NCBI GenBank assembly: GCA_020353515.1
Contig: CP070695.1
Location: forward strand, 1,556,284 to 1,620,283
DNA: 64,000 bases
From: Candidatus Heimdallarchaeota archaeon
Lineage (GTDB): Archaea; Asgardarchaeota; Heimdallarchaeia; Hodarchaeales; Hodarchaeaceae
Reading direction: 5' to 3'
Shown: positions 15,823 through 40,840 of the stretch, piece after piece
Layout of the letters: every line of letters begins with the position of its first letter
Numbering within the stretch: position 1 is the first letter of the stretch
Program-made: the position numbers and the translations under genes
The notes under the pieces: generated by a model
What the model saw: only the letters and a program-made list of their open reading frames with translations
What the model was told of the DNA's origin: nothing
Databases searched by the model: none

Positions 15823-16782
15823 TTAGAAAAACAAGGAGGACACAACAATTCCGAAAAATAACCAAAGAAAAGCAAACCCCATAAACATTGAGGCAATTTT
15901 AAAGATCCTGAATGTTCGTTGTTCAGATGGTCTCTTAAAATTGATTCCAGTATGGTAGAGAATATAAAAACAGAAAATTAACAAAGGAAGCATTGGAAGG
16001 AAGTGAATTCCAAGAATAAAACCTGTGAATACAACAGTGATTCCGCTCAGGACAGCAGAAATAGTGATTACTCTGATAGTTTGGTTTTTATTCGTTACTA
16101 CGGGCCACATGGGGATCTTAGCATTCCTATAATCTTCTAGATTCTTTGGGATTAATGCGAGAGTCAGAATGTGTAAGGGGATCCAGGCAAGGACAAAAAA
16201 ACCAATCAATAGTGCTATCATATCAATTGTTCCTGTCACTGCAGTTCGACCAGCTATTGCAGGTAAGCCTCCTGCAATTCCTCCAAAAACGATTGAAAAT
16301 CTTGTTCGTCGTTTTAACAAGAGTGAATAAACTATAACATCAAAGAAAAATCCCATAAAAACAATAAGCATGGTAATGAAATTGAATAAAGCGCCAGAGA
16401 GAATGATCCCTACTATAACGAAAAGAATTCCATGTTTCAATGCTGTAGATGGATGAATTTTCCCACTAGGAAGTGGACGATCCTTTGTTCGCTCCATAAG
16501 GGCGTCGATATCTTGATCAATGTACATATTAAGCAAAGTGGAACCAGAGACAGCAAAAAAAAGAGACGTTGTAATCCAGATTAAATCCCAGATTTGAAGA
16601 CCACCAGGTGTGCTCCATGCACTGATTAAATAAGTAAATATTGTAGTATAAACCAGTAAAAAGGTTTGTTTACTCTTGATTAACTCACTATAAGTAGATA
16701 AAGTTAAAGGCGGATATTTTGTAATTTCCATTTTTCCATATATATAAGGAAAAGATGGCTTTTCTTGAGATATTTCTTTCAT
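15823..16782 (-). CDS. ctaB: Protoheme IX farnesyltransferase (heme O synthase), copy 1
   Basis: LNMYIDQDIDALMERTKDRPLPSG, YSLLLKRRT, GGIAGGLP, W.PLH...EDY..A..PM. Confidence 0.92.
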   Translation of the reverse strand: MKEISQEKPSFPYIYGKMEITKYPPLTLSTYSELIKSKQTFLLVYTTIFTYLISAWSTPGGLQIWDLIWITTSLFFAVSGSTLLNMYIDQDIDALMERTKDRPLPSGKIHPSTALKHGILFVIVGIILSGALFNFITMLIVFMGFFFDVIVYSLLLKRRTRFSIVFGGIAGGLPAIAGRTAVTGTIDMIALLIGFFVLAWIPLHILTLALIPKNLEDYRNAKIPMWPVVTNKNQTIRVITISAVLSGITVVFTGFILGIHFLPMLPLLIFCFYILYHTGINFKRPSEQRTFRIFKIASMFMGFAFLWLFFGIVVSSLFF

Positions 16783-16816
16783 TTTGTCACATCAAGGTCT
16801 TTCGATGTATTTTTCT

Positions 16817-17659
16817 TCATCCCAAATTTAGTTTGATAGCATCATGAGGACAAATATCTATGCAACGATTGCAGTAGTAGCATTCTCCCTTTTTACTGTC
16901 TCTTGCAGCTTCTTGAGTCGGGCAAATCTTTTCACAAAGTCCACAATCTGTACAATCTTCCGTACGTCGATATTTACTTCTAGTTACCTGACCACAGAGA
17001 CATGAACCTGCCCCAAAGGGACATAAGAACCTGCACCAGGGACGATACAGAAAAATACTAGCTACACAAACTACAATCAAAACAATGAAAGAGATAATTA
17101 TCGTAGTTACAGAGGGAGTCTTAAGTACCGAAAATCCTGGGAAAGGATTAAAAATAGGGAGAATTTGGATACTCAAAAGAGCTAAGAGGATTACAATACC
17201 CAAAAATATCCAGCGTATTTTTTTAGAGAAAGACGAGACGACTTTAATTTGATATTTAGCTTCATTTTGTTCTTTCAAATCTGATTTAAAATTGACTGTT
17301 GAGATTAGTTCTTGCAAGACACCTAAAGGGCATGCAAATCCACAGAAAATCCTCCCAACGAAAAGTGATGAAGCTAATAACACAATTAGTATTATGATTG
17401 CTGGAAGGAGATAGCTTGACTCACTTCTCAGACTTATTGTTGTCAAAAATTGTTGAATAGGCATTACTGCATTGGGTACTCCGCCTATTATAATACCACC
17501 CCATATTATTGTGACTACATAGATTCCGTTTCTTATCTTTCGATCCATCAATTCAGCATCAATTAAGATAATGCAGAACAGAAATGTCACAATCCAAGAA
17601 ATGAGCATTGGTACGCCGTAGATAGCTTCAAAGGGAAGGGATTCATTTTGAACAACCAA
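16817..17659 (-). CDS. NapH/MauN-like membrane polyferredoxin
   Basis: GRIFCGFACPLG, RPWCRFLCPFG and two CxxCxxCxxxCP motifs. Confidence 0.9.
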   Translation of the reverse strand: MVVQNESLPFEAIYGVPMLISWIVTFLFCIILIDAELMDRKIRNGIYVVTIIWGGIIIGGVPNAVMPIQQFLTTISLRSESSYLLPAIIILIVLLASSLFVGRIFCGFACPLGVLQELISTVNFKSDLKEQNEAKYQIKVVSSFSKKIRWIFLGIVILLALLSIQILPIFNPFPGFSVLKTPSVTTIIISFIVLIVVCVASIFLYRPWCRFLCPFGAGSCLCGQVTRSKYRRTEDCTDCGLCEKICPTQEAARDSKKGECYYCNRCIDICPHDAIKLNLG

Positions 17660-17749
17660 ATTATCACCATTGTTACAATTTCTATTTAATTAACTAAGGA
17701 GTCATGCTGATAAGAAAAAAAAGTAGGGAACCAAAAAGAGGTTTTAGTA

Positions 17750-18580
17750 TCACACAGTTAAACTCTCTTTGGTAACAACAAACCGGTTCCATATGCTTGG
17801 AACTAATGGTACAAACACTAACAGGGTTGAGAGCATCGGCGCCATAAAGAACATAGAAAATTTCCCAAAACTTAGCGAGGATGCAAAAGCAACGGGATAT
17901 CCAGTGAAAATTGCTAAAATACCTGATCCAAGAGCAACAATTCTTACCCAATCTTTATCAGGACGACGAAGGATTCCAATAGTGGTTATACCCCAACCAA
18001 TAGCAGCAGCCCAACTCACACGTTGTAAAGCTCGGAAAATTGCGTGTATAGTTGGTTCTGTAGCAACACTAGCGGGAAAAAGTTTCATACGGTTGGTACT
18101 AGCTACTCCATTTAAAAAACACATGACATAAGCGATTCCTGTTAATAAAGCGAATATTACAGTGATCCACGGAATACCTTCAACATAGTGTGTCAAAGCT
18201 AAAAAAATAACCAAATTTGGTAGGAAAATTATTCCCCAAATTGGGATTAATCCCATTTGCATTGCAGGGATCGTTGGCCAGAAACCAGCCAATAAACAAA
18301 GAACATTACCGACTATTGCTACTGATACTGACCACTCTTCTTCAGTATAAAATCCATAAGCACTTACCGCAAATAATAACCCGCCTATGATACTTAAGTC
18401 AGAAATAATTGGAAGGATCTCCTCGATAATGACTTTACATCCTTCTTCTGCTATAGGACTATTAGCCTCCCACCATATGTATGGTTCATATGTTAAAACA
18501 AAAATCACCATACCACCTAGCATACCTATCACAGCTCCAATTAAAGAAAGTACAAATCCTAAAAGTTGATTCCTTTCCAT
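17750..18580 (-). CDS. Uncharacterised multi-TM membrane protein (IWWE..SP.EEG type)
   Basis: About 8 hydrophobic helices; GGAGA RBS; resembles 37408-38205. Confidence 0.7.
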   Translation of the reverse strand: MERNQLLGFVLSLIGAVIGMLGGMVIFVLTYEPYIWWEANSPIAEEGCKVIIEEILPIISDLSIIGGLLFAVSAYGFYTEEEWSVSVAIVGNVLCLLAGFWPTIPAMQMGLIPIWGIIFLPNLVIFLALTHYVEGIPWITVIFALLTGIAYVMCFLNGVASTNRMKLFPASVATEPTIHAIFRALQRVSWAAAIGWGITTIGILRRPDKDWVRIVALGSGILAIFTGYPVAFASSLSFGKFSMFFMAPMLSTLLVFVPLVPSIWNRFVVTKESLTV

Positions 18581-18598
18581 AAGTAATTTTCTCCAAAC

Positions 18599-18611
18599 TA
18601 CGATTCTCGTA
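18599..18611. promoter_or_regulatory. Second Lrp-type palindrome
   Basis: TACGATTCTCGTA just upstream of the 18580 start codon. Confidence 0.45.
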
Positions 18612-18720: not shown

Positions 18721-19560
18721 GTGGATACAATTAGCGATTTTGAAGAAATAACTCCTCAGGAACTTGAAATGCTAGGTTTGTCAAATTATGAATCGCGGGC
18801 TTATCTTACTTTACTCTCAACTGGAATTAGAACGGCAAAAGAAATAGCAAATGAATCAAAAATCCCATTTGGAAGAGTATATGACGTTTTAAGTTCCTTA
18901 GAGGACAAAGGTCTTGCTGATAAACAAGAATCTAGACCAAAAAAATTTGTAGCAAAAGAACCTAAAATCGCTTTAAATAACCTCTTGAATTTGAAAACGG
19001 CAGAACTTCAAACTTTAACGATAAAGGCAGCTGTGATTGAAGAGAAATTAAGTAATTTACATACTACAAAGCCAGAAGATACCCTATTTTGGAGTGTAGC
19101 GCTTGGTGAAAAAGCAATCAGCCGCTATATTGAAAAAATTAGTGAGACTGAAAAGGAATTACAAACAATACTTAACATCAGAGTTGCTGCACGTATTCCT
19201 CAGAAGGAGATAATTGAAAATTTAATTACCACGCTCAAATTATTAACTGAAAATGGGGTCTCTGTTCAAATCCTGCTAAGTGGTGTCACTCCAGGCAGCC
19301 TAGAAGAGACTTTTTTGGCTTCAGTAGCACACTTTTTCGTGCTTTTGGACAGAGCTGAAGTAAAACGTACACAACTGACACCAACAGCATTTGATATTAT
19401 TGATGATGAGAAAATCCTATTGAAGGTCATGAATCCAGTAAACCCTGATGAGTTTTTTGCTTGGATTTTCGTTTGGCAGAAGAAATTAGCTATAAATTTA
19501 AAACCAAAATTTCAAGAGCTCTGGAAAGATGCTACAGATTTGAAGATTGAAATTAGTTGA
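18721..19560 (+). CDS. TrmB-family transcriptional regulator
   Basis: LGLSNYESRAYLTLL...AKEIA.ES.IP.GRVYDVL.SL..KGL...RPKKF. Confidence 0.93.
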   Translation: MDTISDFEEITPQELEMLGLSNYESRAYLTLLSTGIRTAKEIANESKIPFGRVYDVLSSLEDKGLADKQESRPKKFVAKEPKIALNNLLNLKTAELQTLTIKAAVIEEKLSNLHTTKPEDTLFWSVALGEKAISRYIEKISETEKELQTILNIRVAARIPQKEIIENLITTLKLLTENGVSVQILLSGVTPGSLEETFLASVAHFFVLLDRAEVKRTQLTPTAFDIIDDEKILLKVMNPVNPDEFFAWIFVWQKKLAINLKPKFQELWKDATDLKIEIS

Positions 19561-19578: not shown

Positions 19579-20538
19579 TTAGATTATAAAAAAAGGAGAA
19601 ATGACTACTCCCAAATACAACCATAAAAAGGCAAACGCCATGTAAATTGATGCCAGTTTGAAAATTTTAAAAGTCAAATGGTCGGAAGGGTGTTTAAGGT
19701 TCACCAGCGATTTATAAACAATGAAAGCACTGAATCCGAGAAGGGGAAGCATTGGAATAAGATGTATTTGTAGAGTTACACCAGTTAGGATAATTAAGAG
19801 GGCACTTAACAAAGCAGAGAGTGTAATGACTCGAATGGTCTCGATTTTGCTGCTAGTAACAGGCCACATTGGTACATTGGCATTCTTATATCCTTCCAGG
19901 TTTTTAGGGATGAGAGCAAGTGTGAGGATATGTAACGGGATCCAGCATAACACAAATGCCCCCATCAAAATCGCAGCGATGTCAATATAGCCAATAACCG
20001 CAACTCGACCAGCCACGGCTGGGAGGCCTCCTGCTATACCTCCAAAAATAATTGATAGTCGTGTTCTTCGCTTTAACAACAGCGAATAAACCACAACATC
20101 AAAGAAGAAGCCTAAAAAGACAATAAACATCGTAATTAGGTTGGTGAATATTCCTACTGCTAAAATTCCTGCAACCGTAAAGAGGACACCGTGCTTTAAT
20201 ACTGTGGAGGGGGGGATTCTCTTACTCGGTAAGGGACGATCTTTTGTTCTTTCCATAAGTGCATCAATATCGCGATCAATATACATGTTTAGTAAGGTTG
20301 AGCCTGAAACAGCGAAGAAAAGTCCAACTAAAAACAAAATGAAATGATACAATTCAAAATTTGTATTCCAAGAACTGATTAGATAAGCAAAAATCGCTGT
20401 GTAAAGAAGGAGGAAAGTTTGTTTGCTTTTAATCAATTCACTGTATAAGGATAAAGATAGAGGGGGATAAATATATGTCGTTACATCTTCATAAACTTGG
20501 GTACTCTGAGAGTCCAGTGGTGACTTGGTTCTTGACAT
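19579..20538 (-). CDS. ctaB: Protoheme IX farnesyltransferase, copy 2
   Basis: LNMYIDRDIDALMERTKDRPLPS and the other CtaB motifs. Confidence 0.92.
   Translation of the reverse strand: MSRTKSPLDSQSTQVYEDVTTYIYPPLSLSLYSELIKSKQTFLLLYTAIFAYLISSWNTNFELYHFILFLVGLFFAVSGSTLLNMYIDRDIDALMERTKDRPLPSKRIPPSTVLKHGVLFTVAGILAVGIFTNLITMFIVFLGFFFDVVVYSLLLKRRTRLSIIFGGIAGGLPAVAGRVAVIGYIDIAAILMGAFVLCWIPLHILTLALIPKNLEGYKNANVPMWPVTSSKIETIRVITLSALLSALLIILTGVTLQIHLIPMLPLLGFSAFIVYKSLVNLKHPSDHLTFKIFKLASIYMAFAFLWLYLGVVISPFFII
19913..19971 (-). repeat. 59-bp exact repeat, inverted copy at 40451-40509 (ctaB2/ctaB3)
   Basis: ATTTTGATGGGGGCATTTGTGTTATGCTGGATCCCGTTACATATCCTCACACTTGCTCT is identical in both genes. Confidence 0.85.
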
Positions 20539-20599: not shown

Positions 20600-21286
20600 T
20601 TAAAATAACCCGCTAATAACAGGGATTTCAACTTTCCACTTTGTAGGTAGACCTATTCCTAACATAAAAAGTACTCCAACAATAAGCAATAGGAAAGGAA
20701 GTACTTTGAAAATATCAGCTAAAGGCAAAATAGCCCTCATTCCTTCTACTGTTGCGAATGCTAGTAGTACTCCACCGAAGGATATTAATAACCCGCCGAC
20801 GCCAAAGAACGCGCTAGTCCATTCAGTTTCCTTAGAACCAAATGCTGTGTAGAGGGGGAGAAATGAAATAATCAACCCAGATGGAATGTGAGACGCCATC
20901 ACCGCCATGGATGCCATATCTGGCAGAAAGACTTCAAGTTTCATTAAAGTTAATACTGCGATTACAATGAGAACGTAGATGGTATAAATTAGTCCGTACT
21001 TAGTATCAGGCCATACAGCAAACACAAGGCCGATTGCCAGGCATGCGGGTATAAATGCTGCGACTGGGGGAACAAGTGCAAATCCTAAGGTATCTTCCCA
21101 GCCAAGAAGAATAATTAATACTCCAGAAATAAACAGTACTAAAAAACTTACCCCCCATGCTAGATGGTAGGGTTTTTTTGTTGCCATATACTCTTTAAAA
21201 AGTAATAAGGCTAAAACTACGGCTACAACGCCAATTACTAGAAGCACTAATGCTCCTATCATATCAGTTTCTAATAATGAAGCCAT
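20600..21286 (-). CDS. Uncharacterised 7-TM membrane protein
   Basis: Seven hydrophobic segments, one intramembrane His (ASHIPSG). Confidence 0.7.
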   Translation of the reverse strand: MASLLETDMIGALVLLVIGVVAVVLALLLFKEYMATKKPYHLAWGVSFLVLFISGVLIILLGWEDTLGFALVPPVAAFIPACLAIGLVFAVWPDTKYGLIYTIYVLIVIAVLTLMKLEVFLPDMASMAVMASHIPSGLIISFLPLYTAFGSKETEWTSAFFGVGGLLISFGGVLLAFATVEGMRAILPLADIFKVLPFLLLIVGVLFMLGIGLPTKWKVEIPVISGLF

Positions 21287-22541: not shown

Positions 22542-23936
22542 TTAATCTTGCCAACTAAGAAGACGCTGTTCACCTTCAAGCTCACGTATAGTAGTGACAT
22601 CTTGTGTTACTTCTAACGTTCCCCGATAATTTTTATCCTTATCCCGAACTGCAAAATAACGAATATGGATAAATCTATCATTTGATTTAATCCAAAATTC
22701 CGCACTATCTTTCTGTCCACTTTTAAAGGCATCTAAAATACGATTTACAATATGAACACTCTTTTTCGGATGACAATTCTGGACTTTCCTGCCTATCACC
22801 CCAGGACTACGGGGAAAAGTTCTCTCTGGAGTATCAGAATAAAAGCGAACTGTATCATTTTCATCAATGTAAGATATTTCAATAGGGAGATGGGTTAATA
22901 GTAGTGATACTTGTGAAAGATTTAATTGTCCCGTCCTTAATTGTAAAAGGTCATGTCCCGTAATATCAGTTTTATGGATTGTTTCAGGTGTAATAGGCAC
23001 CCATTCCGAACCTGGAGTTACCCAAGCGTATCCTATCTCCTCCTCTCCATTTCTGACTCCTGCCCATTCTTTTGACCCTAATAAATCAAGGGCTGTTGGA
23101 AAAAGAATTGTTTCTTCTTTAAAGATTAAATCTTCAATTTGGGTTATTAATTCTTTAATATTAAGCTCTTCTTGTCGAAATAACTCTCGTACTTCATCAT
23201 GTTTTGCCCACATAACTTGAGATGGACCTGTGAAACCAGCATGTTCTAACTTTGGAAAAAGTTGATTCTCCAATCGTGTGTAATGGATCTCGATTTCTTG
23301 GAGTTTCTTAATTGTTTCTGGATTAGAGGTTTGACGGATCTCGGAAATCAGAGTTCTTGCCACTTGATTTTCTTGCATGTACGTATGAATAGGATGACCT
23401 GGGAGGGTTTCAGGACGCGTGTGTTGATCTAGTGAATATTCAAAAATCCCAACATGAAGATCACATAATTTAGTAATCTGTTCTGCTGTCAATGATCCTT
23501 CATCAATAAGTGCCTGTTCCATAGCTGCAATTTCCGATGCATCAACATCACCTAATAGCTCATTGAATCGCTTTTGAAGATCATCTAATTCTCCTCCTTC
23601 ATGTAACTCCAAAATCAGGGCTTTAAGCATCTCTTGTCTTCTTGCACGTTCACTCTGCCAACCGCTTTTAGCTTGCTCTGAAATTTCAACTTGGACTTTT
23701 TCCGTGGTATTTTTTTCAATACTTGTTGCGATGGCTTGAACTAACTGTGAAATAGTGCTTCCACTCATTTGTGAGACGTCAGTTAAGGTTGCTCGTCTTC
23801 CCACAGTCTTCCGAAGGAAAGGATTCCTTAATCGTTTTAATTTAGGATTTAACTTCATTAAAGTATCTATGACAAATGGGTACTCTTCAATTAGATCATT
23901 AATTTTGGTAGACTCAGTTATTTTAATGATTGACAT
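22542..23936 (-). CDS. DUF1858-DUF438-hemerythrin-PAS protein
   Basis: L.NP.LRKT.GR..TL, EI..MEQ.L, LCDLH, GHP.HT...EN, HY.R.EN.LFP, VMWAKHDE, IGRKV.NCHP. Confidence 0.9.
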   Translation of the reverse strand: MSIIKITESTKINDLIEEYPFVIDTLMKLNPKLKRLRNPFLRKTVGRRATLTDVSQMSGSTISQLVQAIATSIEKNTTEKVQVEISEQAKSGWQSERARRQEMLKALILELHEGGELDDLQKRFNELLGDVDASEIAAMEQALIDEGSLTAEQITKLCDLHVGIFEYSLDQHTRPETLPGHPIHTYMQENQVARTLISEIRQTSNPETIKKLQEIEIHYTRLENQLFPKLEHAGFTGPSQVMWAKHDEVRELFRQEELNIKELITQIEDLIFKEETILFPTALDLLGSKEWAGVRNGEEEIGYAWVTPGSEWVPITPETIHKTDITGHDLLQLRTGQLNLSQVSLLLTHLPIEISYIDENDTVRFYSDTPERTFPRSPGVIGRKVQNCHPKKSVHIVNRILDAFKSGQKDSAEFWIKSNDRFIHIRYFAVRDKDKNYRGTLEVTQDVTTIRELEGEQRLLSWQD

Positions 23937-26177: not shown

Positions 26178-26873
26178 CTATTCTCCTATGAGTTCATCTG
26201 TGACCAATAAAGCAATGGTTAGTAGGATTATAGCGTGAATGAAAAGAAGTAACGTATTGTTTAGGACATAAGCTGGATCCTCAAAAAGGACTATGTTCGT
26301 TGTTACTTGGGTCGCTATTAAAATGGAGGGGAGAATCAAAGGAAAAAATAAAATCGGGATTGCTAATGTTTTAGACCTTGCATAAACTGTTAGAAAGGAA
26401 ACAATACAACCTGCAACACAGAGATCAATCGTACCAATAGTTAACACAATACATAACAAAAGAAAATCAGCTTGAATGTTTAATCTTAGAAATACAATAG
26501 CAAGGATTAATGTGATAAGCTCGATTAGGGCTAAAATAACAATCAGATAGGCAAGTTTAGCCAAGAAAATTACCTGGGGTTTTATTGGTAAAGAAAGTAG
26601 TGAATAAATAGAATTCTTTCTGAGCTCACGAGAGAAGACTGATGTTAAACCTAACATGACTGTAAAAGTAATAATAAACCATAAACATGCTGCAGAAATG
26701 GCTTGTTTAGTCTCTAAGGAAATACTTCCTAAAAGATTAAAGAGAGTGGAAAAAATGAGGATGGATGCGAAGGAGAAAAGGCCCATTGAAAAAAGAGTTT
26801 CTCTTTTTCTAAACTCTAGCAGAATATCTTTTCTTGCTAAAAGGTAAATTTCACTAATCAAGGACATTTCCAA
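26178..26873 (-). CDS. ccmB: Heme exporter CcmB
   Basis: KD..LEFR, F.RE, IFLAK, L.PIL.FPL.LP; operon context. Confidence 0.85.
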   Translation of the reverse strand: MEMSLISEIYLLARKDILLEFRKRETLFSMGLFSFASILIFSTLFNLLGSISLETKQAISAACLWFIITFTVMLGLTSVFSRELRKNSIYSLLSLPIKPQVIFLAKLAYLIVILALIELITLILAIVFLRLNIQADFLLLCIVLTIGTIDLCVAGCIVSFLTVYARSKTLAIPILFFPLILPSILIATQVTTNIVLFEDPAYVLNNTLLLFIHAIILLTIALLVTDELIGE

Positions 26874-26882
26874 CCTCCCAAA

Positions 26883-27581
26883 TTAATTTTGTTTATTTAG
26901 AAAAAAATCAAACTCAGAGGGTTCTAGAACTTTTTCAATTCTTCCTTTTTCAAGATAATAGACTTTTGAACAAACTTGTGATATAGAATGGAAATCATGA
27001 GAACATATGATGACTGTTGTGCCAACTTTTCTATTTGAGATAATGTTTTTTATAAACTGTCTATTTTCAACATCTAATCCAGTAAATGGTTCATCTAGCA
27101 ATACTAATCGGGGAAGGTTTGGTAAAGTGATTTTTAAGAGCTGAAGCTTCTTAGCCATGCCTGTTGAAAGTTCATGAGTCGGTCGGTCTATAAAAAACTT
27201 TAATTTATACTGCTTAACCGCATTGTTAATAATATTTCCAGGATTCTTTGTTTTTCCATTTATCTTGAGATAAAACTCAAGATTTTCACGTCCTGTTAGA
27301 TCCTCATAGAAAAATGAGTGACTCAACAGTGTTCCGATCTCCTTTTTTAGAATGTGTTGATTATCTTTGACTACATTCCCAAATAGCTCTACTTTACCAG
27401 TCGTTGGCTTAATTAAAAGAGAGATTATCTTCAAAAGGGTGCTTTTTCCCACACCATTATTTCCCAATAAGCCAATTGTTTCCCCTTCCTTTATTGTCAG
27501 ATCTATATTCTTTAACGCCTTAATAAACCCGTAAACCTTTGAAACATTACTAAGCTTCACGATAGGATTCAGAACTGACAT
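26883..27581 (-). CDS. ccmA: Heme exporter ATPase CcmA
   Basis: Walker A GNNGVGKST, LSTG signature, LLDEP; start set at ATG 27581 (MSVLNP). Confidence 0.85.
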   Translation of the reverse strand: MSVLNPIVKLSNVSKVYGFIKALKNIDLTIKEGETIGLLGNNGVGKSTLLKIISLLIKPTTGKVELFGNVVKDNQHILKKEIGTLLSHSFFYEDLTGRENLEFYLKINGKTKNPGNIINNAVKQYKLKFFIDRPTHELSTGMAKKLQLLKITLPNLPRLVLLDEPFTGLDVENRQFIKNIISNRKVGTTVIICSHDFHSISQVCSKVYYLEKGRIEKVLEPSEFDFFLNKQN

Positions 27582-27634
27582 TTTAATATCCTTGTTACAA
27601 TTAGTCAAAGAGAATTGACAAGTGAGTTTCAATA

Positions 27635-27787
27635 TTAATCCTTTAAGCTATATAATTCCTTCTCTAATTTCTTTAATCTGTTATTCGTATAAAAAATGTA
27701 AATGAAAATTATTATCCAAACCGTTATAGATACGAAAAACATCAGACTCAATTCAGAACTAAGTAATTCATCAAAAAAATCTGCCAT
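27635..27787 (-). CDS. ccmD: CcmD-like small membrane protein (50 aa, not in ORF track)
   Basis: Hand translation MADFFDELLSSELSLMFFVSITVWIIIFIYIFYTNNRLKKLEKELYSLKD*; GAGGTGA RBS; directly after ccmC. Confidence 0.8.
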   Translation of the reverse strand: MADFFDELLSSELSLMFFVSITVWIIIFIYIFYTNNRLKKLEKELYSLKD

Positions 27788-27821
27788 ACCATTAATCACC
27801 TCTGATTTGTTAGCAAATGTG

Positions 27822-28526
27822 TTAGGCTTCCTCCATCATGGTTTTTCTTACTTCTTTCAACTTTAAATCAATTTTATTAACTCGATATGCCATATAGATC
27901 AGTATTAATGTTAAGATTCCAATTAAAAGAAAGTTTAGCATTAGATAAATTCCTACTCCTGGTCCGAGGGTCGTTTGTTGAGGAGCTGGATGTAAAGCAC
28001 CAACAACGTAGTTTGATAAAGGAACGGATGGAGAAGTCGCAATTCCGAATATCGCTGAAAGAGTGGCTTTTCTTTCGTGGTTTTCTTCCTCTATCATTTC
28101 TCTGAAAATCAATAATCCGACATAAGCTAGCCACATAATTAATGTTACAGTCTGTCGGGCTTCCCATTGCCACCAATAACCCCATTCTGCTTTAGACCAG
28201 ATTATACCCACAATAATGGTGATTGCTCCAACAACAACTCCTGTTTGGGCACTCGAAAGTAGAAAAAAATCGAACTTCAAGTCTTTTCTCCATAAGTACA
28301 TAATACCACTAATAAGTACAATGCCAAAACAGAAATATGTTGAAAAGGCAAACGGAACCATGTAGAAAATCGGGTGTCCGCTTACTGTGAAACCTTGAAA
28401 ATGTTTAGTAGTTATAAACACGAAATAATAGTTCAGAATGGAAAAACAGATTAAAAATGCCAAAACTATCCAATTAAGATTCTCTTGAATTTTTTCATTT
28501 ATCAAAGTGAGTTCCTCATGTTTCAT
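27822..28526 (-). CDS. ccmC: Heme chaperone loading protein CcmC
   Basis: WWD domain G.IW.K.EWGYWWQWEARQT, LHP. Confidence 0.9.
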   Translation of the reverse strand: MKHEELTLINEKIQENLNWIVLAFLICFSILNYYFVFITTKHFQGFTVSGHPIFYMVPFAFSTYFCFGIVLISGIMYLWRKDLKFDFFLLSSAQTGVVVGAITIIVGIIWSKAEWGYWWQWEARQTVTLIMWLAYVGLLIFREMIEEENHERKATLSAIFGIATSPSVPLSNYVVGALHPAPQQTTLGPGVGIYLMLNFLLIGILTLILIYMAYRVNKIDLKLKEVRKTMMEEA

Positions 28527-28926
28527 CTACATATTTTGATGGACATTTTGTACTAATCATTGAGGCCCGAAGTTTCCATATATTAGTTGTTGAAACAAGT
28601 TTACCTTCAATTAGTACAGTTTTTCCAGATTCAAATCCTGCAGGCTTCTCAACATTAGTTGCATTGACAAAAATAGTCAAAGATGCGTTATTTACATCAT
28701 CAGGATCAGTTACAAAGAATCCTGTGGTATTAGCCTGCTGAACAACACCTATTAGTTGAATATTACGGTTTATAAATGAATCTGGTCGTGATTCATCCAT
28801 CAATTCTTTCACAGTAAACACTGGTACAGATGAACTTGTCAGCAGAATCAAGAAAGCTCCACCACAGATTATGATTATCACTGCAGCAATTCCAATATTT
28901 CTGGGTTTAATCATATATAACACCAT
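28516..28926 (-). CDS. ccmE: Heme chaperone CcmE, CxxxY (System I*) type
   Basis: N-terminal TM, OB-fold pattern, KCPSKY. Confidence 0.9.
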   Translation of the reverse strand: MVLYMIKPRNIGIAAVIIIICGGAFLILLTSSSVPVFTVKELMDESRPDSFINRNIQLIGVVQQANTTGFFVTDPDDVNNASLTIFVNATNVEKPAGFESGKTVLIEGKLVSTTNIWKLRASMISTKCPSKYVDET

Positions 28927-31156
28927 CCACTTCGATTTTTTCTTCTGATATAAGATCTTTCTCTATTTCTCTTTTTCTTAATGAGGAAGCTTTTCTAAGA
29001 AGGATTAATCTCCCAATGGTTAATGGAATGATAGCAAAATGGAGGAGAAGGCAGCCAGCCCAGACAATATTCACGTATGGAATTATTTTTATCTGAAGAA
29101 TAGTACCTATAAGACTTCCTGAGATCGGGTTTTCTAAAATACCAGCAGTAACAATGTATATGTCAGCAAATAGATCACTAATTATTGTAACTTCATGATT
29201 CCAATTTTTTGGGTCTGTCCAGCGTTTATGAATGAGTACTCGGCTCACTCCAAAACCTATTGTTCGTGTTCCTGTGGATATCTGAAAAAACGTTTGGTAT
29301 TCCATGAGATACAGACCAGATTCGTGAACAACTTCATCCATGTCTAAAATTGAGATTGTTAATGAAGTTCCTTCAATGGTTTCAGATTGACCATCGTAAA
29401 GAAGAACTTCGTATGTACTCGTCATATTAATACTCAATATCGCTCCTAAAATGATCACTAAGAAAGAGAAATGCAACATTATCTGAGAAGTCTTACGAAT
29501 AAGGTTTTTTTCTTCTTTCAGTGCCACATTTATAAATTCTGCAATTAAACCAGCTAAGCCAAGAATTATAAGAGGAAGGACTAAGTCTGCTTTTTCACTA
29601 GTAGTCCAGAAGTTACTAAGGAAAGATAAAATGGGATTTCCTTGTCCTAGAAATGAGGAAAGAACGCCTTCTTTATATAAGAAACCACTTATTGCAAATA
29701 CAATCCCTGTAATTATTCCACCAATTGCTAATCCAGTCTTCCGTTTAATGCTGAGTCTTGGGTAAAATGTACAGAAAAATTGTGCTATCAGCATAATTCC
29801 TCCAAAAACAGTTAAAACTGTATTATAGAACAATTTCCCCACACTAATGCTTGGTCCGAATCCTTCTGAGCTAAAGGTGATTAAATAACCAAGAATATTA
29901 TAGATAACGGGTGCTATCAAACCTAGAATTATGGCATAAGTACCTAAAATGCCAGAAATGAATGAAATTTTCAATGCAGTTACACGGGACTTTGATGCCT
30001 GAAAATCTTCCTTATTTAGCGAAAGGGGTACATGAAAGATTTCCCTATTCTTAAAACCATAGATATGCGGAAGCAAAAAATTAACAACTAGCACAATAAA
30101 AAGGAAAAACATCCTTTCATTAGGAATAACTGATAATATTATTTGCATAATGAAGCTATTTTCAGGAATGAAAATCCTGAGAATATCGGCAAGCGTACTA
30201 TCCAAGGGAAATGTATGTACACTAGATATGATACCACTTCTAGTTACATACGTGGCAAATAGTGTACCAATATAACTCATACTTACAATGTAATTACCAA
30301 AGTATTCTCTTTTATTAAAGAATCTTTTTCCATGAAAATAAAAGGTAATAAAGAGCCATGGTACTAGAGACGCTGTTTCAACGGGATCCCATGCCCAGAA
30401 ACCACCCCAACCCAGAGTAATATAAGCCCAGTATCCTCCAATTATTATTCCAGAGCTTAAAACAAGCCAAGCCAGTGAAATAATAAATTCAAAGAAATTA
30501 TCTAGTTTCTCTTTTCCCTCAAAGTTGGGAACCTTCCCATCTTCAAGAACTGAAATTCTTGCTATTCCAATGACCATGGGAATTATGCATAAAGCGTAAC
30601 CAATGAAAATGATTGAAGGATGAATAACATTCCAGATGTTCATTAAAACGGGATTTAATCCTATACCATCAGAGGTTGCCCCTAAATTCAACTTGAATGG
30701 TTCATGTAGTATTGATAATGCCACTAAAAAGGCTACTTGGAGAGCAAAAATTACAAATGAGCGCCAAAAGATGGGTTCATGAGCGAAATCCCTGAAAAGC
30801 GCCCTGAAGACAATGTAAAGAATTACAGCTAGAAAAGCCCAGAAGAAAAATGAACCTGCTTGTCCTGACCAAATAGCAGATAATCTCAAGAAAAAATCCA
30901 TGTCATTATTAACGTAACGACTCACATATATGAAATTATAATCAGCAGTTATGATAGAATAACTAAAATAAATAAATGAGACGAGAAATGCAGAACTACC
31001 GATAAATAGACTAATCTCAGAGTAAATTTCCCACTTTTCAATATACTTTCCAGATATTACAAGAAATATGTCGAAAAGTAACGCTATTAAGCTTATTAAT
31101 AACAATAACATTCCTACATCCATACCAAATATTCCCAGATCTAAATAAAACATCAT
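28907..31156 (-). CDS. ccmF: Cytochrome c synthetase CcmF
   Basis: W.GQ.GS, GLNP.L, IHP, WAY..LGWGGFWAWDPVETASLVPW, TRSG..SSVH.F. Confidence 0.95.
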   Translation of the reverse strand: MMFYLDLGIFGMDVGMLLLLISLIALLFDIFLVISGKYIEKWEIYSEISLFIGSSAFLVSFIYFSYSIITADYNFIYVSRYVNNDMDFFLRLSAIWSGQAGSFFFWAFLAVILYIVFRALFRDFAHEPIFWRSFVIFALQVAFLVALSILHEPFKLNLGATSDGIGLNPVLMNIWNVIHPSIIFIGYALCIIPMVIGIARISVLEDGKVPNFEGKEKLDNFFEFIISLAWLVLSSGIIIGGYWAYITLGWGGFWAWDPVETASLVPWLFITFYFHGKRFFNKREYFGNYIVSMSYIGTLFATYVTRSGIISSVHTFPLDSTLADILRIFIPENSFIMQIILSVIPNERMFFLFIVLVVNFLLPHIYGFKNREIFHVPLSLNKEDFQASKSRVTALKISFISGILGTYAIILGLIAPVIYNILGYLITFSSEGFGPSISVGKLFYNTVLTVFGGIMLIAQFFCTFYPRLSIKRKTGLAIGGIITGIVFAISGFLYKEGVLSSFLGQGNPILSFLSNFWTTSEKADLVLPLIILGLAGLIAEFINVALKEEKNLIRKTSQIMLHFSFLVIILGAILSINMTSTYEVLLYDGQSETIEGTSLTISILDMDEVVHESGLYLMEYQTFFQISTGTRTIGFGVSRVLIHKRWTDPKNWNHEVTIISDLFADIYIVTAGILENPISGSLIGTILQIKIIPYVNIVWAGCLLLHFAIIPLTIGRLILLRKASSLRKREIEKDLISEEKIEVDGVIYD

Positions 31157-33635: not shown

Positions 33636-35096
33636 TTAGCGTCTTTTACGTAAAAGAACAACCACACCGAGAATGCTTAGGACAGCTAGGAGGCCAATCG
33701 CGGGAGTACCAGCACCATCAGGTGCCTCACTTGATTCAGTAGTTTCACTAGTTTCTTCTGCGAGTAGAGCTTCTGCAGCTATTTGGGCCCAGTCCAGTTT
33801 GGATAAAGCCAGCGCGAGTTTTTGTTTGGCAAGATCGGGGTTGTGGAACCCACCACTTGGATCATCTGCTACAAATTCTGCTAAGGCCTCAGCTTCCTCG
33901 ATTAAAGCATCGATATGGGCGATCTCGTCCTTATCAACACCTGAAACAGCTCTAGCTTCATCTGCTTTAGCTTTGACAGCCGTCAATTTAGTGTCGAATG
34001 AAGATAGTAGATCAGCGACCTCTGTTTGGACATCTTCCAAGTAATCAGTTCTATCTGACACATCAGGCATGGTAGTCTGATTAAAGTAAAAGTCCCAGTG
34101 ACATCGAGCGCAGGCATCGGGAACAGAGATTGCAAAACTGTGATTTAGTGAGAAGCTAGCATTTTGCCAACTTGTTCCAAATCTACCAGCTCGCTCTCCT
34201 GCAGGTGTAAAGTAGTAACCATGACAATCTGTACAATCTGTACTGTTGGTAATCGTTGTTGGGGTGGTAGTGTCGGTAATCATTTCATAAGGTGTTCCGT
34301 GACATTCTCCACATAATTCTGGGATACTGTCTCCTCTTAAATTGGCTTTATTGTCCTTGTATGTTACTGTTTTTGATACAGCGTGAGGATCGTGGCATGT
34401 AAAGCACTGAATGTTGAAAAGTGAACTGTCATTCACAGGAGTCTCTGAAAGATCTGTGTAAAGTCCTTGTCCTGCCATACAGTGTAGACAACGGCTTGCT
34501 GCATGATCACTAGCAAGTAGATCGTCAAGTGATTCTGCGTGAGCACTCGCAGCCATGTCTGTAAAGGTAACACCTGCTGGCATATGACATGTCATACCAC
34601 ATGGGTCATTAGCTGGAAAGAATGGAGGATAACCTGTTGGCCATTTTGTTCCAGGAGTCTTATGACATTCTGCACAAGCTACTCCGAAGTCCCAAACGGT
34701 TCCGTTTCCGGACGGGATGACGGAGGTATCGTTTTCCCATCTTGTTACATGACAGCAACCTTCTGAATCGTTTAAGATATAATCATACGAATAGTAGTCG
34801 CCGTTCCAATGTACCAAATGGGTTTCATTGTACGGAGTCAATAGCCGAGAGTGGAGGGTCTCGTTCCAACCAAGATATTCTTCTTCATGGCATTCCATAC
34901 AATCCTCAGGATGCCATGGGTCTGAGATACCGCTATGGTCGTACTTGTTGAATGTGTATTTTGGATTCAAAACACCAGCTCCTAAACCAGCTGCCGCAGC
35001 GGTTCCGACGAACACAATTGCAAACCAGTAAAGTAGTACAACTCTACGACCGTTCCACTTGCTCTGGCGTATTAACACTTCTTTTTCTTCAGTCAT
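33636..35096 (-). CDS. Surface-anchored multiheme cytochrome c (c552/NrfA-like C-terminal helices)
   Basis: Six CxxCH (CMECH, CAECH, CFTCH, CGECH, CTDCH, CARCH) plus CGMTCH, CLHCM and GCCH; GGFHNP; sorting tail; start set at ATG 35096. Confidence 0.92.
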   Translation of the reverse strand: MTEEKEVLIRQSKWNGRRVVLLYWFAIVFVGTAAAAGLGAGVLNPKYTFNKYDHSGISDPWHPEDCMECHEEEYLGWNETLHSRLLTPYNETHLVHWNGDYYSYDYILNDSEGCCHVTRWENDTSVIPSGNGTVWDFGVACAECHKTPGTKWPTGYPPFFPANDPCGMTCHMPAGVTFTDMAASAHAESLDDLLASDHAASRCLHCMAGQGLYTDLSETPVNDSSLFNIQCFTCHDPHAVSKTVTYKDNKANLRGDSIPELCGECHGTPYEMITDTTTPTTITNSTDCTDCHGYYFTPAGERAGRFGTSWQNASFSLNHSFAISVPDACARCHWDFYFNQTTMPDVSDRTDYLEDVQTEVADLLSSFDTKLTAVKAKADEARAVSGVDKDEIAHIDALIEEAEALAEFVADDPSGGFHNPDLAKQKLALALSKLDWAQIAAEALLAEETSETTESSEAPDGAGTPAIGLLAVLSILGVVVLLRKRR

Positions 35097-35544
35097 TATT
35101 ATACCGCCATAACAAATATTCTTTGTAGTTACATCAAGTAACTGGTTTCTCATCAGGGTTTGTTGTTATTCTATTCCCATAGAACTTCTTCTGTTTGAAA
35201 TTTCGATCAAGAGTTAGAATGATCACTGAAATTCCAAGTCTTGTAATTCTTGGCTTCCATCAATAAGAACGTTTTCTAAGGTTTTAATAATCAAGTATCA
35301 TTGATGTAAGCTAGTAACTTCGATGTAATCATCTATGAACTCAATTTCATAGAAGATACATCAGAAAAATCTAAGTATAACTTTTATAGTTTTCGTTATT
35401 AAAAAATTTTAAAACTTGTAAAACTGTAATAATTTGTAACTTAGGATGAGCTCTCCCATTGGCAATCAATTTCCTTAAATCAATGATTATCAAGATTACA
35501 GATCGCAAAGCTGTTTAATGATTGAAAAGTAGTGCGAATTACTT

Positions 35545-37407: not shown

Positions 37408-38205
37408 ATGTGTAAGAATAGGAATGTAGAGAAAATGAGTAAAATAATCAGTAAACTGAAAGAATTTCCAAGAACAATAGCAATTCTCTATATATTAATT
37501 GGTGCTGCAGCTGCTATAGGGATTGTTAGTGGAATTGGAAGTACCTGTACCACCTTTTTTCCCATATGGTGGGAACTCGGAAGCCCTGAAGAGGGGTACC
37601 CATTCGCAATCATAGGGGACACTCAAATAGCTTTCATCCTCGCCTACATAGTGACTTGGCTTGTAGCTTTAGTCTGGGGAGCGCTATTCTGGGCACTTGG
37701 TGTGAAAAAAACATGGTTCTACAAGGTGGCCATTATTACAAGTGCTGCGGGATTCTTGAGTGGATTTATTCCAGTAGCGATTTTGTTTTACGAGTGGTAT
37801 ATGAGTTTCGGACTTAATGGGATGTTATTTACACCCTCCTGGTTCCGAACAATCATTAATTTAGTTATATTAGTCATGCTTCTAATTCCTGTTGTTAAAC
37901 GAGGTATTACAGGTTATATAGAAGAAACAGGTGTTTCTGCTGGCGGCAGTGTTGGATCACAAGTTACTCAATTTTCTTTGGTGTTATTCGGTTTCAGTGT
38001 AGTAATGATGGTTCAACCTCTCATTATGCCCACGCACATCATTGGTGGAGTAAATGTTGGTTCTTCTATGAGTTACCTCCTAGCCTCAGGCACACTCCAA
38101 TTCTTTTTTGGATTTACTTGTATTTTCCTAGGGGTGGTCATACTTATAGCAGGACAGGTGCTAAATATCATCTATTCCTCAAAACCAACACCTTTGAGAG
38201 CTTAG
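37408..38205 (+). CDS. Uncharacterised multi-TM membrane protein (IWWE..SP.EEG type)
   Basis: About 6 TM; probable start ATG 37435; resembles 17750-18580. Confidence 0.7.
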   Translation: MCKNRNVEKMSKIISKLKEFPRTIAILYILIGAAAAIGIVSGIGSTCTTFFPIWWELGSPEEGYPFAIIGDTQIAFILAYIVTWLVALVWGALFWALGVKKTWFYKVAIITSAAGFLSGFIPVAILFYEWYMSFGLNGMLFTPSWFRTIINLVILVMLLIPVVKRGITGYIEETGVSAGGSVGSQVTQFSLVLFGFSVVMMVQPLIMPTHIIGGVNVGSSMSYLLASGTLQFFFGFTCIFLGVVILIAGQVLNIIYSSKPTPLRA

Positions 38206-38230
38206 GCCAACGCAAAAGAATGATTACATA

Positions 38231-39847
38231 TTGAGCAGGAAATCATTGAGGTTACAATCTATGAACACTATAGAAAAAGAAGAAGGAATTCTCCCTTGGT
38301 TCAAATATAAAATTCATTATGGTCTAACCTTTAAAGGAATGATAACTTTCACAATCGTGTGGGAGTTCTGTATTATTCTCTTTTTATCAACCTTTTCTGA
38401 ACCAATAAAGCTTGTACTTGGGCAACCATTGTTTCCCATAACGTTAGATCCCGACCCTATCGAGAAAGCTGGCCGTCTTATTATGGTTTATCACGGAATC
38501 GCGGTTCCATTCATAGCAACCTGTGCTTATTTTGTATTGGAATACATGGATGTACGAGAGAAGTTTAAATCCCGCGTAAAATATCCACTATTTTTTGGGA
38601 GTATTTTAGCTTCTGCAAATGCACTATTATTCGCTTATGTTTTCCCAGAAGGCTGGATTTTACACGGATTGTACTTAGTGGGATTATCTCTTTGTTTTTA
38701 TGGTGGAGTCATGCTTCTTATCGGTGTTTTTCCAACGAAGAGTTTTCCAGAACGAGGCCCAGAAAACAGCCGTAATGTTCTTGTTGGACAACTTGCATTA
38801 ACACTGCTTGCTATTTGTATTTTGATTAGTGTTATACTTGGAGCAGCAGTTGGCGCCTTTTTTGGCCAATCTGGTTTGACAGTAATGCTGGCAGAGTATT
38901 TCCTTAGGCATGATCTCTATCCGTATTTTGTTGAAGAGCTTTTCATAGACGCCATTAAAGCTCATTTACATGTTATGCTGGCATTAATTGATGTCATAAT
39001 CCTACTAGTTGTCTATCGATATACTGTTCCTGACCAAAAGGGAAAGTGGTATCTTATTTCTATGATCCTTGCTATTCCAGGAATGCTCATTCTTTCATTG
39101 GGAGCTTGGTTTGTAACACTTAACTCCATAGTCACTTGGCCCTTTGATATGCATTATCTCATTTATGCTGGTGCAGCGATTCTCGTAACTGTTGGCATAA
39201 TATTGGCGTTTACGGGTTGGAATAAAGCAAGTAAAGAAGTTCTTGGCGATTCTTATGACTCTGCGTCCTGGTTTACTCGTGTTAAAGCTGTTTTCAAAGT
39301 TCCTGTGAAATTCGCCTTATATTTCCAATTTATCTGGGTGAATATCGTAATGACTATTGGAGGTATATTCCTTGCCCTTAGTCTTCGAGGTGAAACTGAT
39401 CCTGAGGGTGCTTCTCCACTCACAAATGTGTTAGGTCTGGTTTCATTTCGAGATGGTCCTCTAGCAATTGAAACTACAGTCGCTCGTGGTCATTGGCACG
39501 TTCTAGCTACATTATCGGCAATTATTTTACTTCTCCTAGTTATAGATGTACTAGATATTCAAGGTATTTGGCGTAAGGTAATAGCTTGGCTGTTATTTGC
39601 TGGAAGTGTTATTGCATTTGGATTGGCAACAATTTTTTTGTATTTCCCACATTTAGACCAAACATGGGCGACAAATTTGACTAAATATGTAGACGTACAG
39701 GAATTCTGGAATGAAACAGCATTTTGGTTACCGCTTGTCATTGACTTTGGAATCATGCTATTCGTCGTAGCAATTACAATATTCTGTTTCCATCAGCTCA
39801 TTGAGATTCTCAAAGGAAGAAAAGATGTTAAAGAATTCCCAGAATAA
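38231..39847 (+). CDS. 12-TM His-rich protein with heme-copper oxidase subunit I-like architecture, lacking the CuB His-His pair
   Basis: Three 4-TM units; H88 (TM2), H245xH247 (TM6), H421xH423 (TM10), plus H145 and H308; probable start ATG 38261. Confidence 0.6.
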   Translation: MSRKSLRLQSMNTIEKEEGILPWFKYKIHYGLTFKGMITFTIVWEFCIILFLSTFSEPIKLVLGQPLFPITLDPDPIEKAGRLIMVYHGIAVPFIATCAYFVLEYMDVREKFKSRVKYPLFFGSILASANALLFAYVFPEGWILHGLYLVGLSLCFYGGVMLLIGVFPTKSFPERGPENSRNVLVGQLALTLLAICILISVILGAAVGAFFGQSGLTVMLAEYFLRHDLYPYFVEELFIDAIKAHLHVMLALIDVIILLVVYRYTVPDQKGKWYLISMILAIPGMLILSLGAWFVTLNSIVTWPFDMHYLIYAGAAILVTVGIILAFTGWNKASKEVLGDSYDSASWFTRVKAVFKVPVKFALYFQFIWVNIVMTIGGIFLALSLRGETDPEGASPLTNVLGLVSFRDGPLAIETTVARGHWHVLATLSAIILLLLVIDVLDIQGIWRKVIAWLLFAGSVIAFGLATIFLYFPHLDQTWATNLTKYVDVQEFWNETAFWLPLVIDFGIMLFVVAITIFCFHQLIEILKGRKDVKEFPE

Positions 39848-39874
39848 TTGACTTAACTCTGTAAGCTTTGAATC

Positions 39875-40840
39875 GTGGAATGGCTAAAGATTATGAAAGA
39901 AGTGGAAATTTCCCTCCAACCACAGGAATATGAAAGCGTGACGTCCTATACATATCCCCCTCTCTCTTTTTCAACCTATAGTGAACTAATTAAAAGTAAA
40001 CAAACCTTTCTCCTTCTCTATACTTCAGTTTTTGCTTATCTGATCAGCGCCTGGGGAACAGGAATCTTCCTATTTCATTTTATTTGGTTCACTATAGGTC
40101 TCTTCTTCGCAATTACAGGGTCAACCCTTCTGAATATGTATATCGATCGTGATATTGATGCGCTCATGGACAGAACAAAAGATCGTCCATTACCAAGCCG
40201 AAGAATTCCCCCTTCAACTGTTTTAAAGCATGGTGCTCTTTTCACAGTAGCAGGTATTTTAGCAGTAGGAATATTCACCAACCTAGTTACAATGTTTGTT
40301 GTCTTCTTGGGTTTCTTTTTTGATGTCGTGGTTTACTCGCTGTTGTTAAAGCGACGTACAAGATTGTCAATTATTTTTGGAGGCGTTGCAGGAGGACTCC
40401 CAGCCATCGCTGGTCGGGCAGCAGTTATAGGGTATGTTGACATCGCTAGTATTTTGATGGGGGCATTTGTGTTATGCTGGATCCCGTTACATATCCTCAC
40501 ACTTGCTCTTATTCCTAAAAATTTAGAAGGATATAAGAATGCTAATGTACCAATGTGGCCTGTTGTCAGTAGTCCAACCCAGACAATATATATTGTGACC
40601 TTATCAGCAATTTTTAGTGCCTTGACTGTTGTTCTAACTGGAATAGTATTACAAATTAATATACTCGCACTCCTTCCATTATTTCTTTTTTGTGCATTTA
40701 TTCTCTTTCAAGCATTCGTAAATCTTAGAGAACCCTCTCATGAGAGAACATTTCAGATTTTTAAGCTTGCCTCAATTTTCATGGCTTTCGCGTTCCTTTG
40801 GTTGTTCGTGGGAGTAATTATAACTTCATTTCTTCCTTGA
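39875..40840 (+). CDS. ctaB: Protoheme IX farnesyltransferase, copy 3
   Basis: LNMYIDRDIDALMDRTKDRPLPS and the other CtaB motifs; probable start ATG 39893. Confidence 0.92.
   Translation: MEWLKIMKEVEISLQPQEYESVTSYTYPPLSFSTYSELIKSKQTFLLLYTSVFAYLISAWGTGIFLFHFIWFTIGLFFAITGSTLLNMYIDRDIDALMDRTKDRPLPSRRIPPSTVLKHGALFTVAGILAVGIFTNLVTMFVVFLGFFFDVVVYSLLLKRRTRLSIIFGGVAGGLPAIAGRAAVIGYVDIASILMGAFVLCWIPLHILTLALIPKNLEGYKNANVPMWPVVSSPTQTIYIVTLSAIFSALTVVLTGIVLQINILALLPLFLFCAFILFQAFVNLREPSHERTFQIFKLASIFMAFAFLWLFVGVIITSFLP

Follow-up and report, generated by a model that had tools for sequence, protein, structure and literature searches.

Heme O synthases of the CtaB/CyoE/COX10 family (TIGR01473) are UbiA-fold enzymes whose genes normally accompany cox, cyo, or ctaA genes. 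Subunit I of the heme-copper oxidases (HCOs) and of the nitric oxide reductases (NORs) is a 12-helix membrane protein; in the oxidases, transmembrane helices (TM) 2 and 10 carry the heme ligands and TM7 carries a His-His pair of the CuB site. Membrane iron-sulfur proteins of the NapH/NosH/CcoG family are encoded beside nap, nos, or cco genes, and CcoG is an accessory factor of cbb3 oxidase (NCBIfam TIGR02745). Genes that resemble each of these lie together in a 64,000-nucleotide (nt) stretch of DNA from a Candidatus Heimdallarchaeota archaeon, referred to here as the window (positions 1,556,284-1,620,283 of contig CP070695.1). The genome is a single closed contig of 4.94 Mb, 96% complete, and its nearest homologues in protein databases carry names that put it in Hodarchaeales. 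Three ctaB genes fall within a 25 kb region of the window that is rich in heme-handling genes. Their products probably make a heme O-type cofactor for an oxidase-fold membrane protein of 12 transmembrane helices (12-TM), whose gene precedes one of the three, and the remaining membrane proteins encoded beside them would be its partners in one module that was duplicated and split.

Each ctaB gene lies 27-90 nt downstream of membrane-protein genes on the same strand, and the genes are arranged in three short operons. IWWE1 and a NapH-like gene precede ctaB1; the gene of a seven-transmembrane (7TM) protein precedes ctaB2; and IWWE2 and the 12-TM gene precede ctaB3, which is followed by a gene of the major facilitator superfamily (MFS). 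The original prediction of three intact ctaB copies, each behind codirectional membrane genes, was correct: all three reading frames are intact and have TIGR01473, the NCBIfam heme O synthase family, as their best NCBIfam match. Relative to its equivalog cut-off of 210.3 bits, ctaB2 scores above while ctaB1 and ctaB3 score just under. The operons are made up of the following genes.

15823..16782, minus strand: ctaB1, heme O synthase paralogue of the CtaB type and the most diverged copy (UbiA E 4.5e-48; TIGR01473 208.8 bits)
16817..17659, minus strand: NapH/CcoG-type membrane iron-sulfur protein (TIGR02163 NapH/MauN 89.5 bits, below cut-off; Fer4_5/Fer4 domains)
17750..18580, minus strand: IWWE1, polytopic membrane protein whose family has no name (no match in Pfam, NCBIfam, or the PDB)
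19579..20538, minus strand: ctaB2, CtaB-like heme O synthase paralogue (TIGR01473 215.9 bits, over cut-off)
20600..21286, minus strand: 7TM protein (no family match; invariant His133, near-invariant His41)
37408..38205, plus strand: IWWE2, distant paralogue of IWWE1 (~18-27% identity)
38231..39847, plus strand: 12-TM protein, 538 amino acids (aa), or 528 aa from the likely start ATG at 38261; predicted HCO subunit I fold
39875..40840, plus strand: ctaB3, CtaB-like paralogue that keeps the ancestral place after the 12-TM gene (TIGR01473 209.8 bits)

Co-occurrence of ctaB with the 12-TM gene

The closed 4.94 Mb genome contains no COX1 (PF00115), no cytochrome bd subunit I, and no CtaA. The expectation that no terminal oxidase lies near the ctaB genes therefore stands for recognizable oxidases, of which there are none genome-wide, but it fails for the gene directly upstream of ctaB3, which encodes an oxidase-fold protein. 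Relatives of this protein were found at 499 loci in a scan with one genome per species. The 499 species genomes belong to Asgard archaea, many Anaerolineae and other Chloroflexota, Aminicenantes, Spirochaetota, and Bacillota.

Synteny was read in the best 80 of the 499 loci, 72 of which are not cut off. In 51 of these 72, a ctaB gene lies on the same strand and at most 1.5 kb downstream of the 12-TM gene, and this linkage spans Asgard archaea, Chloroflexota, Aminicenantes, Spirochaetota, and Bacillota. In Asgard archaea, the genes usually run IWWE2-7TM-12TM-ctaB-MFS, with 7TM immediately before the 12-TM gene at most loci. In Anaerolineae, genes of the IWWE1 type take the position directly upstream; the order in Anaerolineales is (NapH-like)-IWWE1-12TM-ctaB, the NapH-like gene adjoining IWWE1-12TM-ctaB in locus L038. 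Another bacterial group (16 loci) has the order 12TM, a gene with an FGE-sulfatase domain (~300 aa), and ctaB; loci with the FGE-sulfatase domain (L064-L068, L076-L080, and L082-L088) come from Anaerolineae, Aminicenantes, Spirochaetota, and Bacillota.

At least seven further loci carry a genuine COX1 directly upstream of the 12-TM gene instead of a ctaB downstream. The COX1-12TM loci of Chloroflexota are L050, L052, L058-L061, L069, L072, and L074, and their COX1 scores ~220 bits with all six canonical His ligands. At L072, COX1 is itself preceded by a small cupredoxin-like open reading frame (ORF) and NDH-2. The Chloroflexota genomes with this arrangement hold a ctaB of the 12-TM-linked subfamily elsewhere. 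Multiheme cytochromes were considered as part of the module core and rejected, since an ORF with at least three CxxCH motifs is nearby in just 7 of the 80 loci.

Presence and absence were tabulated for 83 genomes of the class, with ctaB-like genes called at E <= 1e-30; related genomes are non-independent samples, and the counts that follow are to be read as descriptive and not as a test of significance. All 15 genomes that have both the 12-TM gene and COX1 also have ctaB. It accompanies the 12-TM gene without COX1 in 17 of 18 genomes and COX1 without the 12-TM gene in 8 of 9, and the 41 genomes that lack both have no ctaB. The sole 12-TM genome without ctaB (G055) is a fragmented assembly in which the 12-TM gene is cut short (342 of 480 profile positions). 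Within one family of 31 genomes, the four that have ctaB are the same four that have the 12-TM gene, and COX1 occurs in none of the four. Closed genomes without COX1, namely the present one, G002, G010, and G032 of the Anaerolineaceae, all keep the 12-TM gene together with ctaB. Within the class, ctaB follows the 12-TM gene no less faithfully than it follows real oxidases.

The partner genes follow the same distribution. Of the 33 genomes with a 12-TM gene, 29 have the 7TM gene and 25 have IWWE genes; the 50 genomes that lack a 12-TM gene have neither. In the present genome, the window contains the sole 12-TM gene and both IWWE genes. The IWWE, 7TM, and NapH-like proteins are most likely further members of one module, not separate clients of heme O synthase.

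The oxidase-like fold of the 12-TM protein and its partners

The AlphaFold model of the 12-TM protein has a predicted local distance difference test score (pLDDT) of 90.3 and a predicted template modeling score (pTM) of 0.91. In an unbiased fold scan of 48,161 chains, the top 10 matches are all subunit I of an HCO or NOR (Z 14.8-19.9, 399-429 residues aligned), and the next, unrelated chain follows at Z 12. CcoN of cbb3 oxidase (3mk7_A) is matched at Z 19.9 with a root-mean-square deviation of 4.0 over 417 residues, NorB of cNOR (4xyd_A) at Z 19.3, and CyoB of bo3 oxidase (1fft_A) at Z 17.4; the 12-helix fold is shared with these three over 399-417 residues. A Foldseek search of the PDB agrees in that the top 50 matches are all subunit I of HCOs or NO reductases, at a template modeling (TM) score of ~0.5 and E of ~0.01.

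Seven histidines (H78, H135, H235, H237, H298, H411, and H413) are invariant in all 38 sequences of the alignment from which conservation was read. H78 lies in the predicted helix 66-95 (TM2), and H411 and H413 form an HxH motif in helix 401-430 (TM10), which are the same helices that hold the heme ligands of the oxidases; the placement is at the level of helices and not of superposed residues. Like HCO subunit I, the 12-TM protein is also genetically dependent on a ctaB gene. It differs from HCO subunit I in several respects. In the 38-sequence alignment, TM7 (residues 262-285) has no conserved His, where the oxidases carry the CuB-site pair; TM6 holds an additional HxH motif (H235 and H237), and invariant histidines stand at the starts of TM4 and TM8. 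Asgard 12-TM loci also lack a subunit II gene.

No homology to the oxidases can be detected in sequence. The 12-TM protein, like the IWWE and 7TM proteins, has no match in Pfam or NCBIfam, the COX1 profile PF00115 included. Homology between the 12-TM family and COX1 was tried with hhalign against seven true COX1 proteins and rejected, at a probability of 5% and with the register displaced (TM6 of the family on TM10 of COX1). A search of the PDB with the single sequence returned just a weak partial match to an Mrp antiporter subunit, and the 70 homologues found in a large protein collection contain no Pfam domain.

A further difference from known oxidases is a moderate sequence similarity among the three four-helix units of the protein. 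In profile comparison, units 1 and 3 match at a probability of 89% (E 2.6e-6) and units 2 and 3 at 74%, with H78, H237, and H413 aligned with one another across the units. This similarity appears to be a sequence trace of a triplication, one that the known oxidases have lost. A literature search turned up no account of the 12-TM family, of its CtaB lineage, or of any pairing between heme O synthase and an oxidase-like protein, with incomplete coverage that makes it no proof of novelty.

The partner proteins are less easily placed. Profile searches with alignments of the 7TM, IWWE, and CtaB proteins against all PDB sequences gave no matches, and look-ups of IWWE1 and 7TM in a protein atlas returned unnamed clusters only, mostly from Chloroflexota; IWWE1 homologues are also present in Hodarchaeales. 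The IWWE family has no invariant His. The model of the 7TM protein (pLDDT 92.3) is a generic seven-helix bundle. A role as a counterpart of HCO subunit III was considered for it and gained no support: the fold search matched bundles of the same generic kind without a clear leader (Z 11-14), and no subunit III was among the 50 listed.

The NapH-like partner of ctaB1 shares with the NapH/NosH/CcoG family two CxxxCP motifs (C106-x3-C-P and C209-x3-C-P), two 4Fe-4S motifs (C236xxCxxCxxxC and C260xxCxxCxxxC), and a transmembrane part. It differs in its score, which is 89.5 bits against a cut-off of 213 bits, and in its neighbors, which are IWWE1 and ctaB and not nap, nos, or cco genes.

The CtaB subfamily and the origin of the three copies

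All three CtaB proteins match Pfam UbiA (PF01040) with E values of 4e-44 to 5e-48 over profile positions 2-249 of 250, and their pairwise identity is ~63%. A TIGR01473 search of the whole genome found no fourth CtaB-like gene. In common with the described heme O synthases, the three have the UbiA fold, a length of ~320 aa, the aspartate-rich prenyl diphosphate motif N-x3-D-x-D-x-D (here N-M-Y-I-D-(R/Q)-D-I-D), the conserved His of the W-x-P-x-H motif, and a PM(W/L)P motif. They lack the canonical W-x-P-P-H-F-x-A-L-A and read WIPLHILTLAL instead, with the His retained; this nonstandard motif had been predicted for all three copies and is found in all three.

The altered motif belongs to a subfamily that extends across archaea and bacteria, whose signature is WIPxHIxT where canonical enzymes read WTPPHFWALAL. 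At position 151 of ctaB3, members have Asp in place of the canonical Tyr, and another seven positions also tell the two groups apart. The three copies agree at all nine residues that set the subfamily apart from canonical CtaB, and 55-56 of the 56 positions conserved in the subfamily are kept in each (55 in ctaB1, 56 in ctaB2).

The relationships of these enzymes were examined in a tree of 64 CtaB-like proteins rooted on the five other UbiA proteins of the same genome, built by a quick search with support from the Shimodaira-Hasegawa-like approximate likelihood-ratio test (SH-aLRT) only. The CtaB-like proteins form one clade against the five others (SH-aLRT 96), so the three window proteins branch with CtaB and not with non-heme UbiA enzymes, the point on which the original prediction would have fallen. 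Inside this clade, the three window enzymes belong to a group placed at sister level to the cox-linked ones. The cox-linked canonical proteins group together (92), the Asgard 12-TM-linked proteins form a clade that includes all three window genes (99), and the bacterial 12-TM-linked proteins form a separate clade (98). In bacteria with both systems, the ctaB beside cox scores 310-347 bits and a second, separate ctaB beside the 12-TM gene scores 190-222 bits. In contrast to the described family, the linkage of the three window genes is with an oxidase-fold gene instead of cox, cyo, or ctaA, and the 12-TM-linked type is found in genomes that have neither an oxidase nor CtaA.

Four genomes of the same genus (G040, G041, G045, and G056) have an A-type oxidase together with a sole ctaB, which is of the 12-TM-linked type. 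The oxidase of the strain behind G041 has been shown to be active (10.1101/2025.11.07.685452). These two observations suggest that the 12-TM-linked subfamily makes usable heme O. Two other genomes of the genus (G052:C53 and G053:C9; loci L138 and L139) contain an extra, very divergent CtaB of 241 bits, which sits on a branch longer than 8 in the tree of the genus and falls with the canonical enzymes in the wider tree. Both genomes have an A-type COX1.

Most of the 22 genomes compared within the genus have one ctaB; five have two, and three copies occur only in the present genome and in G046. The individual copies can be traced to other species. ctaB3 groups with 12-TM-linked orthologues (support 95). 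For ctaB2, the sister is the copy that G059 carries beside 7TM (support 96); that locus has the same layout of HxlR, 7TM-ctaB2, TrmB, and IWWE1, and the 7TM-ctaB2 pair is also present in G054. ctaB1, which has the longest branch of the three, pairs with the NapH-linked copy of G050 (support 98). This orthologue (L161, G050:C74) is split across two frames, as a pseudogene or through an assembly error. At L054, AsnC and POR genes directly follow IWWE1-NapH and there is no ctaB1.

The three copies are thus duplicates of the 12-TM-linked gene that originated in the genus and outlasted speciation, each having an orthologue with the same neighbors in another species; ctaB1 is the least stable. In G046, the copies are arranged differently. 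On G046/G005 contig C13 (L019/L141/L156), two tandem ctaB genes directly follow the 12-TM gene and the third copy is on another contig. This tandem arrangement is an independent route to three copies.

Heme supply, rival explanations, and meaning

The remaining genes of the region include regulators and several genes for handling heme.

15249..15704, minus strand: AsnC/Lrp regulator, downstream of ctaB1
18721..19560, plus strand: TrmB-family regulator (TrmB and DUF7436), between the ctaB1 and ctaB2 operons
22542-23936, minus strand: DUF1858-DUF438-hemerythrin-PAS_10 protein, inside the heme gene region
26178..31156, minus strand: ccmB, ccmA, ccmC, ccmE, and ccmF (Pfam CcmB, ABC_tran, Cytochrom_C_asm, CcmE, and CcmF_C), between ctaB copies
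33636..35153, minus strand: multiheme cytochrome c (Cytochrome_C554, C7, and C552 domains)
40895..42118, plus strand: MFS transporter (MFS_1 E 2e-43), downstream of ctaB3

An FTR1 iron permease is also encoded between the ctaB copies, together with the ccm genes, the multiheme cytochrome, and the DUF438-hemerythrin-PAS protein. The domain architecture of the latter suggests a gas or redox sensor, which could bear on the regulation of the ctaB operons. The regulators near the operons differ from one another (AsnC; TrmB and HxlR; an HTH-MetOD1 protein). The TrmB gene has the same position in the G059 locus (L147), and the AsnC/Lrp gene stands directly after NapH in L054 and after ctaB1 in G050.

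Searches of the closed genome for ALAD, porphobilinogen deaminase, ferrochelatase, and AhbD found none above cut-off. Among 21 further members of the genus, 20 lack ALAD as well, and the single match lies at a contig end. Ccm proteins, cytochromes c, and CtaB are nonetheless encoded across the genus, and the present genome has Ccm, a multiheme cytochrome, and three CtaB. Since no heme synthesis genes are detectable and heme-dependent functions such as these are encoded, these archaea probably depend on imported heme. An MFS gene lies directly downstream of the 12-TM-linked ctaB at Hodarchaeales loci L010, L011, L020, L143-L145, and L153 as well. Given the missing heme pathway, one may speculate that the MFS gene downstream of ctaB3 is a candidate transporter of heme or of a heme precursor.

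Supply of a heme O-type cofactor to the 12-TM protein by all three CtaB, within one module that was duplicated and split, is the explanation judged probable. The module would have been duplicated and broken into three short operons, with every fragment retaining one ctaB. Each CtaB would attach a prenyl chain to heme b, itself probably imported as the heme synthesis genes are undetectable, and the heme O-type product would be inserted into the His sites of the 12-TM protein. The 12-TM, 7TM, IWWE, and NapH-type iron-sulfur proteins may together form a membrane redox complex. The most plausible reason for keeping three copies would be separate regulation of the operons, which is the simplest idea because the operons adjoin different regulators.

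Several observations weigh against this explanation. The likeness of the 12-TM protein to the oxidases, as modeled, would be one of fold only, given the 5% of hhalign. The product could differ from heme O, to judge from ctaB1 and ctaB3 falling just below the TIGR01473 cut-off and from the altered PPHF motif. One 12-TM gene against three ctaB genes is unexplained by simple cofactor supply, and ctaB1 looks dispensable, being absent in L054 and split in G050. The arrangement of COX1 with the 12-TM gene in nine Chloroflexota loci fits an accessory role of the 12-TM protein equally well. Finally, the counts from the 83 genomes overstate the statistical support, as the genomes are related.

The original prediction offered two readings, a supply of prenylated heme to nonoxidase client proteins or a difference between the paralogues in prenyl donor or regulation. 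A version of the first, in which prenylated heme goes independently to IWWE/NapH, 7TM, and 12-TM, now appears rather improbable. Each ctaB has its own operon with a distinct upstream gene, each arrangement is kept in at least one other species, and the invariant His133 and near-invariant His41 of the 7TM protein could bind heme. The upstream membrane genes are indeed conserved beside ctaB in other genomes, as the prediction needed. However, in relatives and in Anaerolineae the IWWE, 7TM, NapH-like, and 12-TM genes form one cluster with a single ctaB, as is the case in most other genomes, and most members of the genus carry only one ctaB. The 7TM and IWWE genes never occur without a 12-TM gene in the 83 genomes, and IWWE has no invariant His. 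The prediction that the client is not an oxidase is borne out insofar as the genome has no canonical oxidase, and is undercut by the HCO subunit I fold of the probable client. It is also unlikely that the paralogues are specialized for different prenyl donors, such as farnesyl versus geranylgeranyl diphosphate, or for differently modified hemes. The ~37% sequence divergence between copies and the retention of each since before speciation would fit specialization, and archaea reportedly make hemes with alternative side chains (variants of hemes O and A), as Luebben and Morand are said to have described in 1994. The nine discriminating residues and 55-56 of the 56 conserved positions are nevertheless identical in the three copies, and ctaB1 is lost or broken in close relatives.

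Prenylation of a substrate unrelated to heme O, whether a quinone, a lipid, or another tetrapyrrole used by the module, is the least probable of the alternatives. The altered WIPxHIxT motif, the change of Tyr to Asp near the active site, the scores at or below the equivalog cut-off, and the undetectable heme synthesis could all be read in its favor, but the proteins branch inside the CtaB clade and far from other UbiA enzymes. Furthermore, ctaB is present only alongside the 12-TM gene or COX1, the 12-TM-linked type is the sole ctaB in the four congeners with an A-type oxidase, and the genome handles heme by way of its Ccm genes and multiheme cytochrome. The extra copies might instead be redundant by-products of local duplication and rearrangement that are being lost and have no separate role, an idea regarded as doubtful. 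It would account for the restriction of three copies to 2 of 22 genomes of the genus, for the absence of ctaB1 in L054 and its splitting in G050, and for the long branch of ctaB1. It sits poorly with three intact frames in which the catalytic positions are conserved, and with the same-context orthologues of ctaB1 and ctaB2 elsewhere, which indicate that both survived speciation.

A broader interpretation is offered tentatively. The module may represent an undescribed, heme O-dependent membrane redox enzyme without a copper site, present in ~500 species of mostly anaerobic archaea and bacteria, and its 12-TM protein, with the similarity among its four-helix units, may resemble the triplicated ancestor of the HCO fold more than the known oxidases do. 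In the present archaeon, such an enzyme would run on scavenged heme and three separately regulated synthases. The new findings comprise the triplicated ctaB with its history, the split module that takes in IWWE, 7TM, and NapH-like, the class-wide co-occurrence tables, the COX1-12TM variant of Chloroflexota, and the missing heme pathway.

Heme O synthase is routinely taken as a marker of aerobic respiration, including in current work on Asgard archaea and on how eukaryotes arose, and preprints on Heimdallarchaeia treat it as part of the aerobic toolkit (10.1101/2024.07.04.601786; 10.1101/2025.02.26.640444). Using ctaB as evidence of oxygen use can mislead, because in this class ctaB follows an unannotated oxidase-fold gene as well as it follows real oxidases and itself occurs in genomes without any oxidase. 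The module points to an uncharacterized family of heme membrane proteins that is widespread in anaerobes. The triplication of ctaB in a genome without heme synthesis genes is a natural system for the regulation of prenylated heme supply, and the 12-TM family could shed light on the origin of the oxidase fold before copper was acquired.

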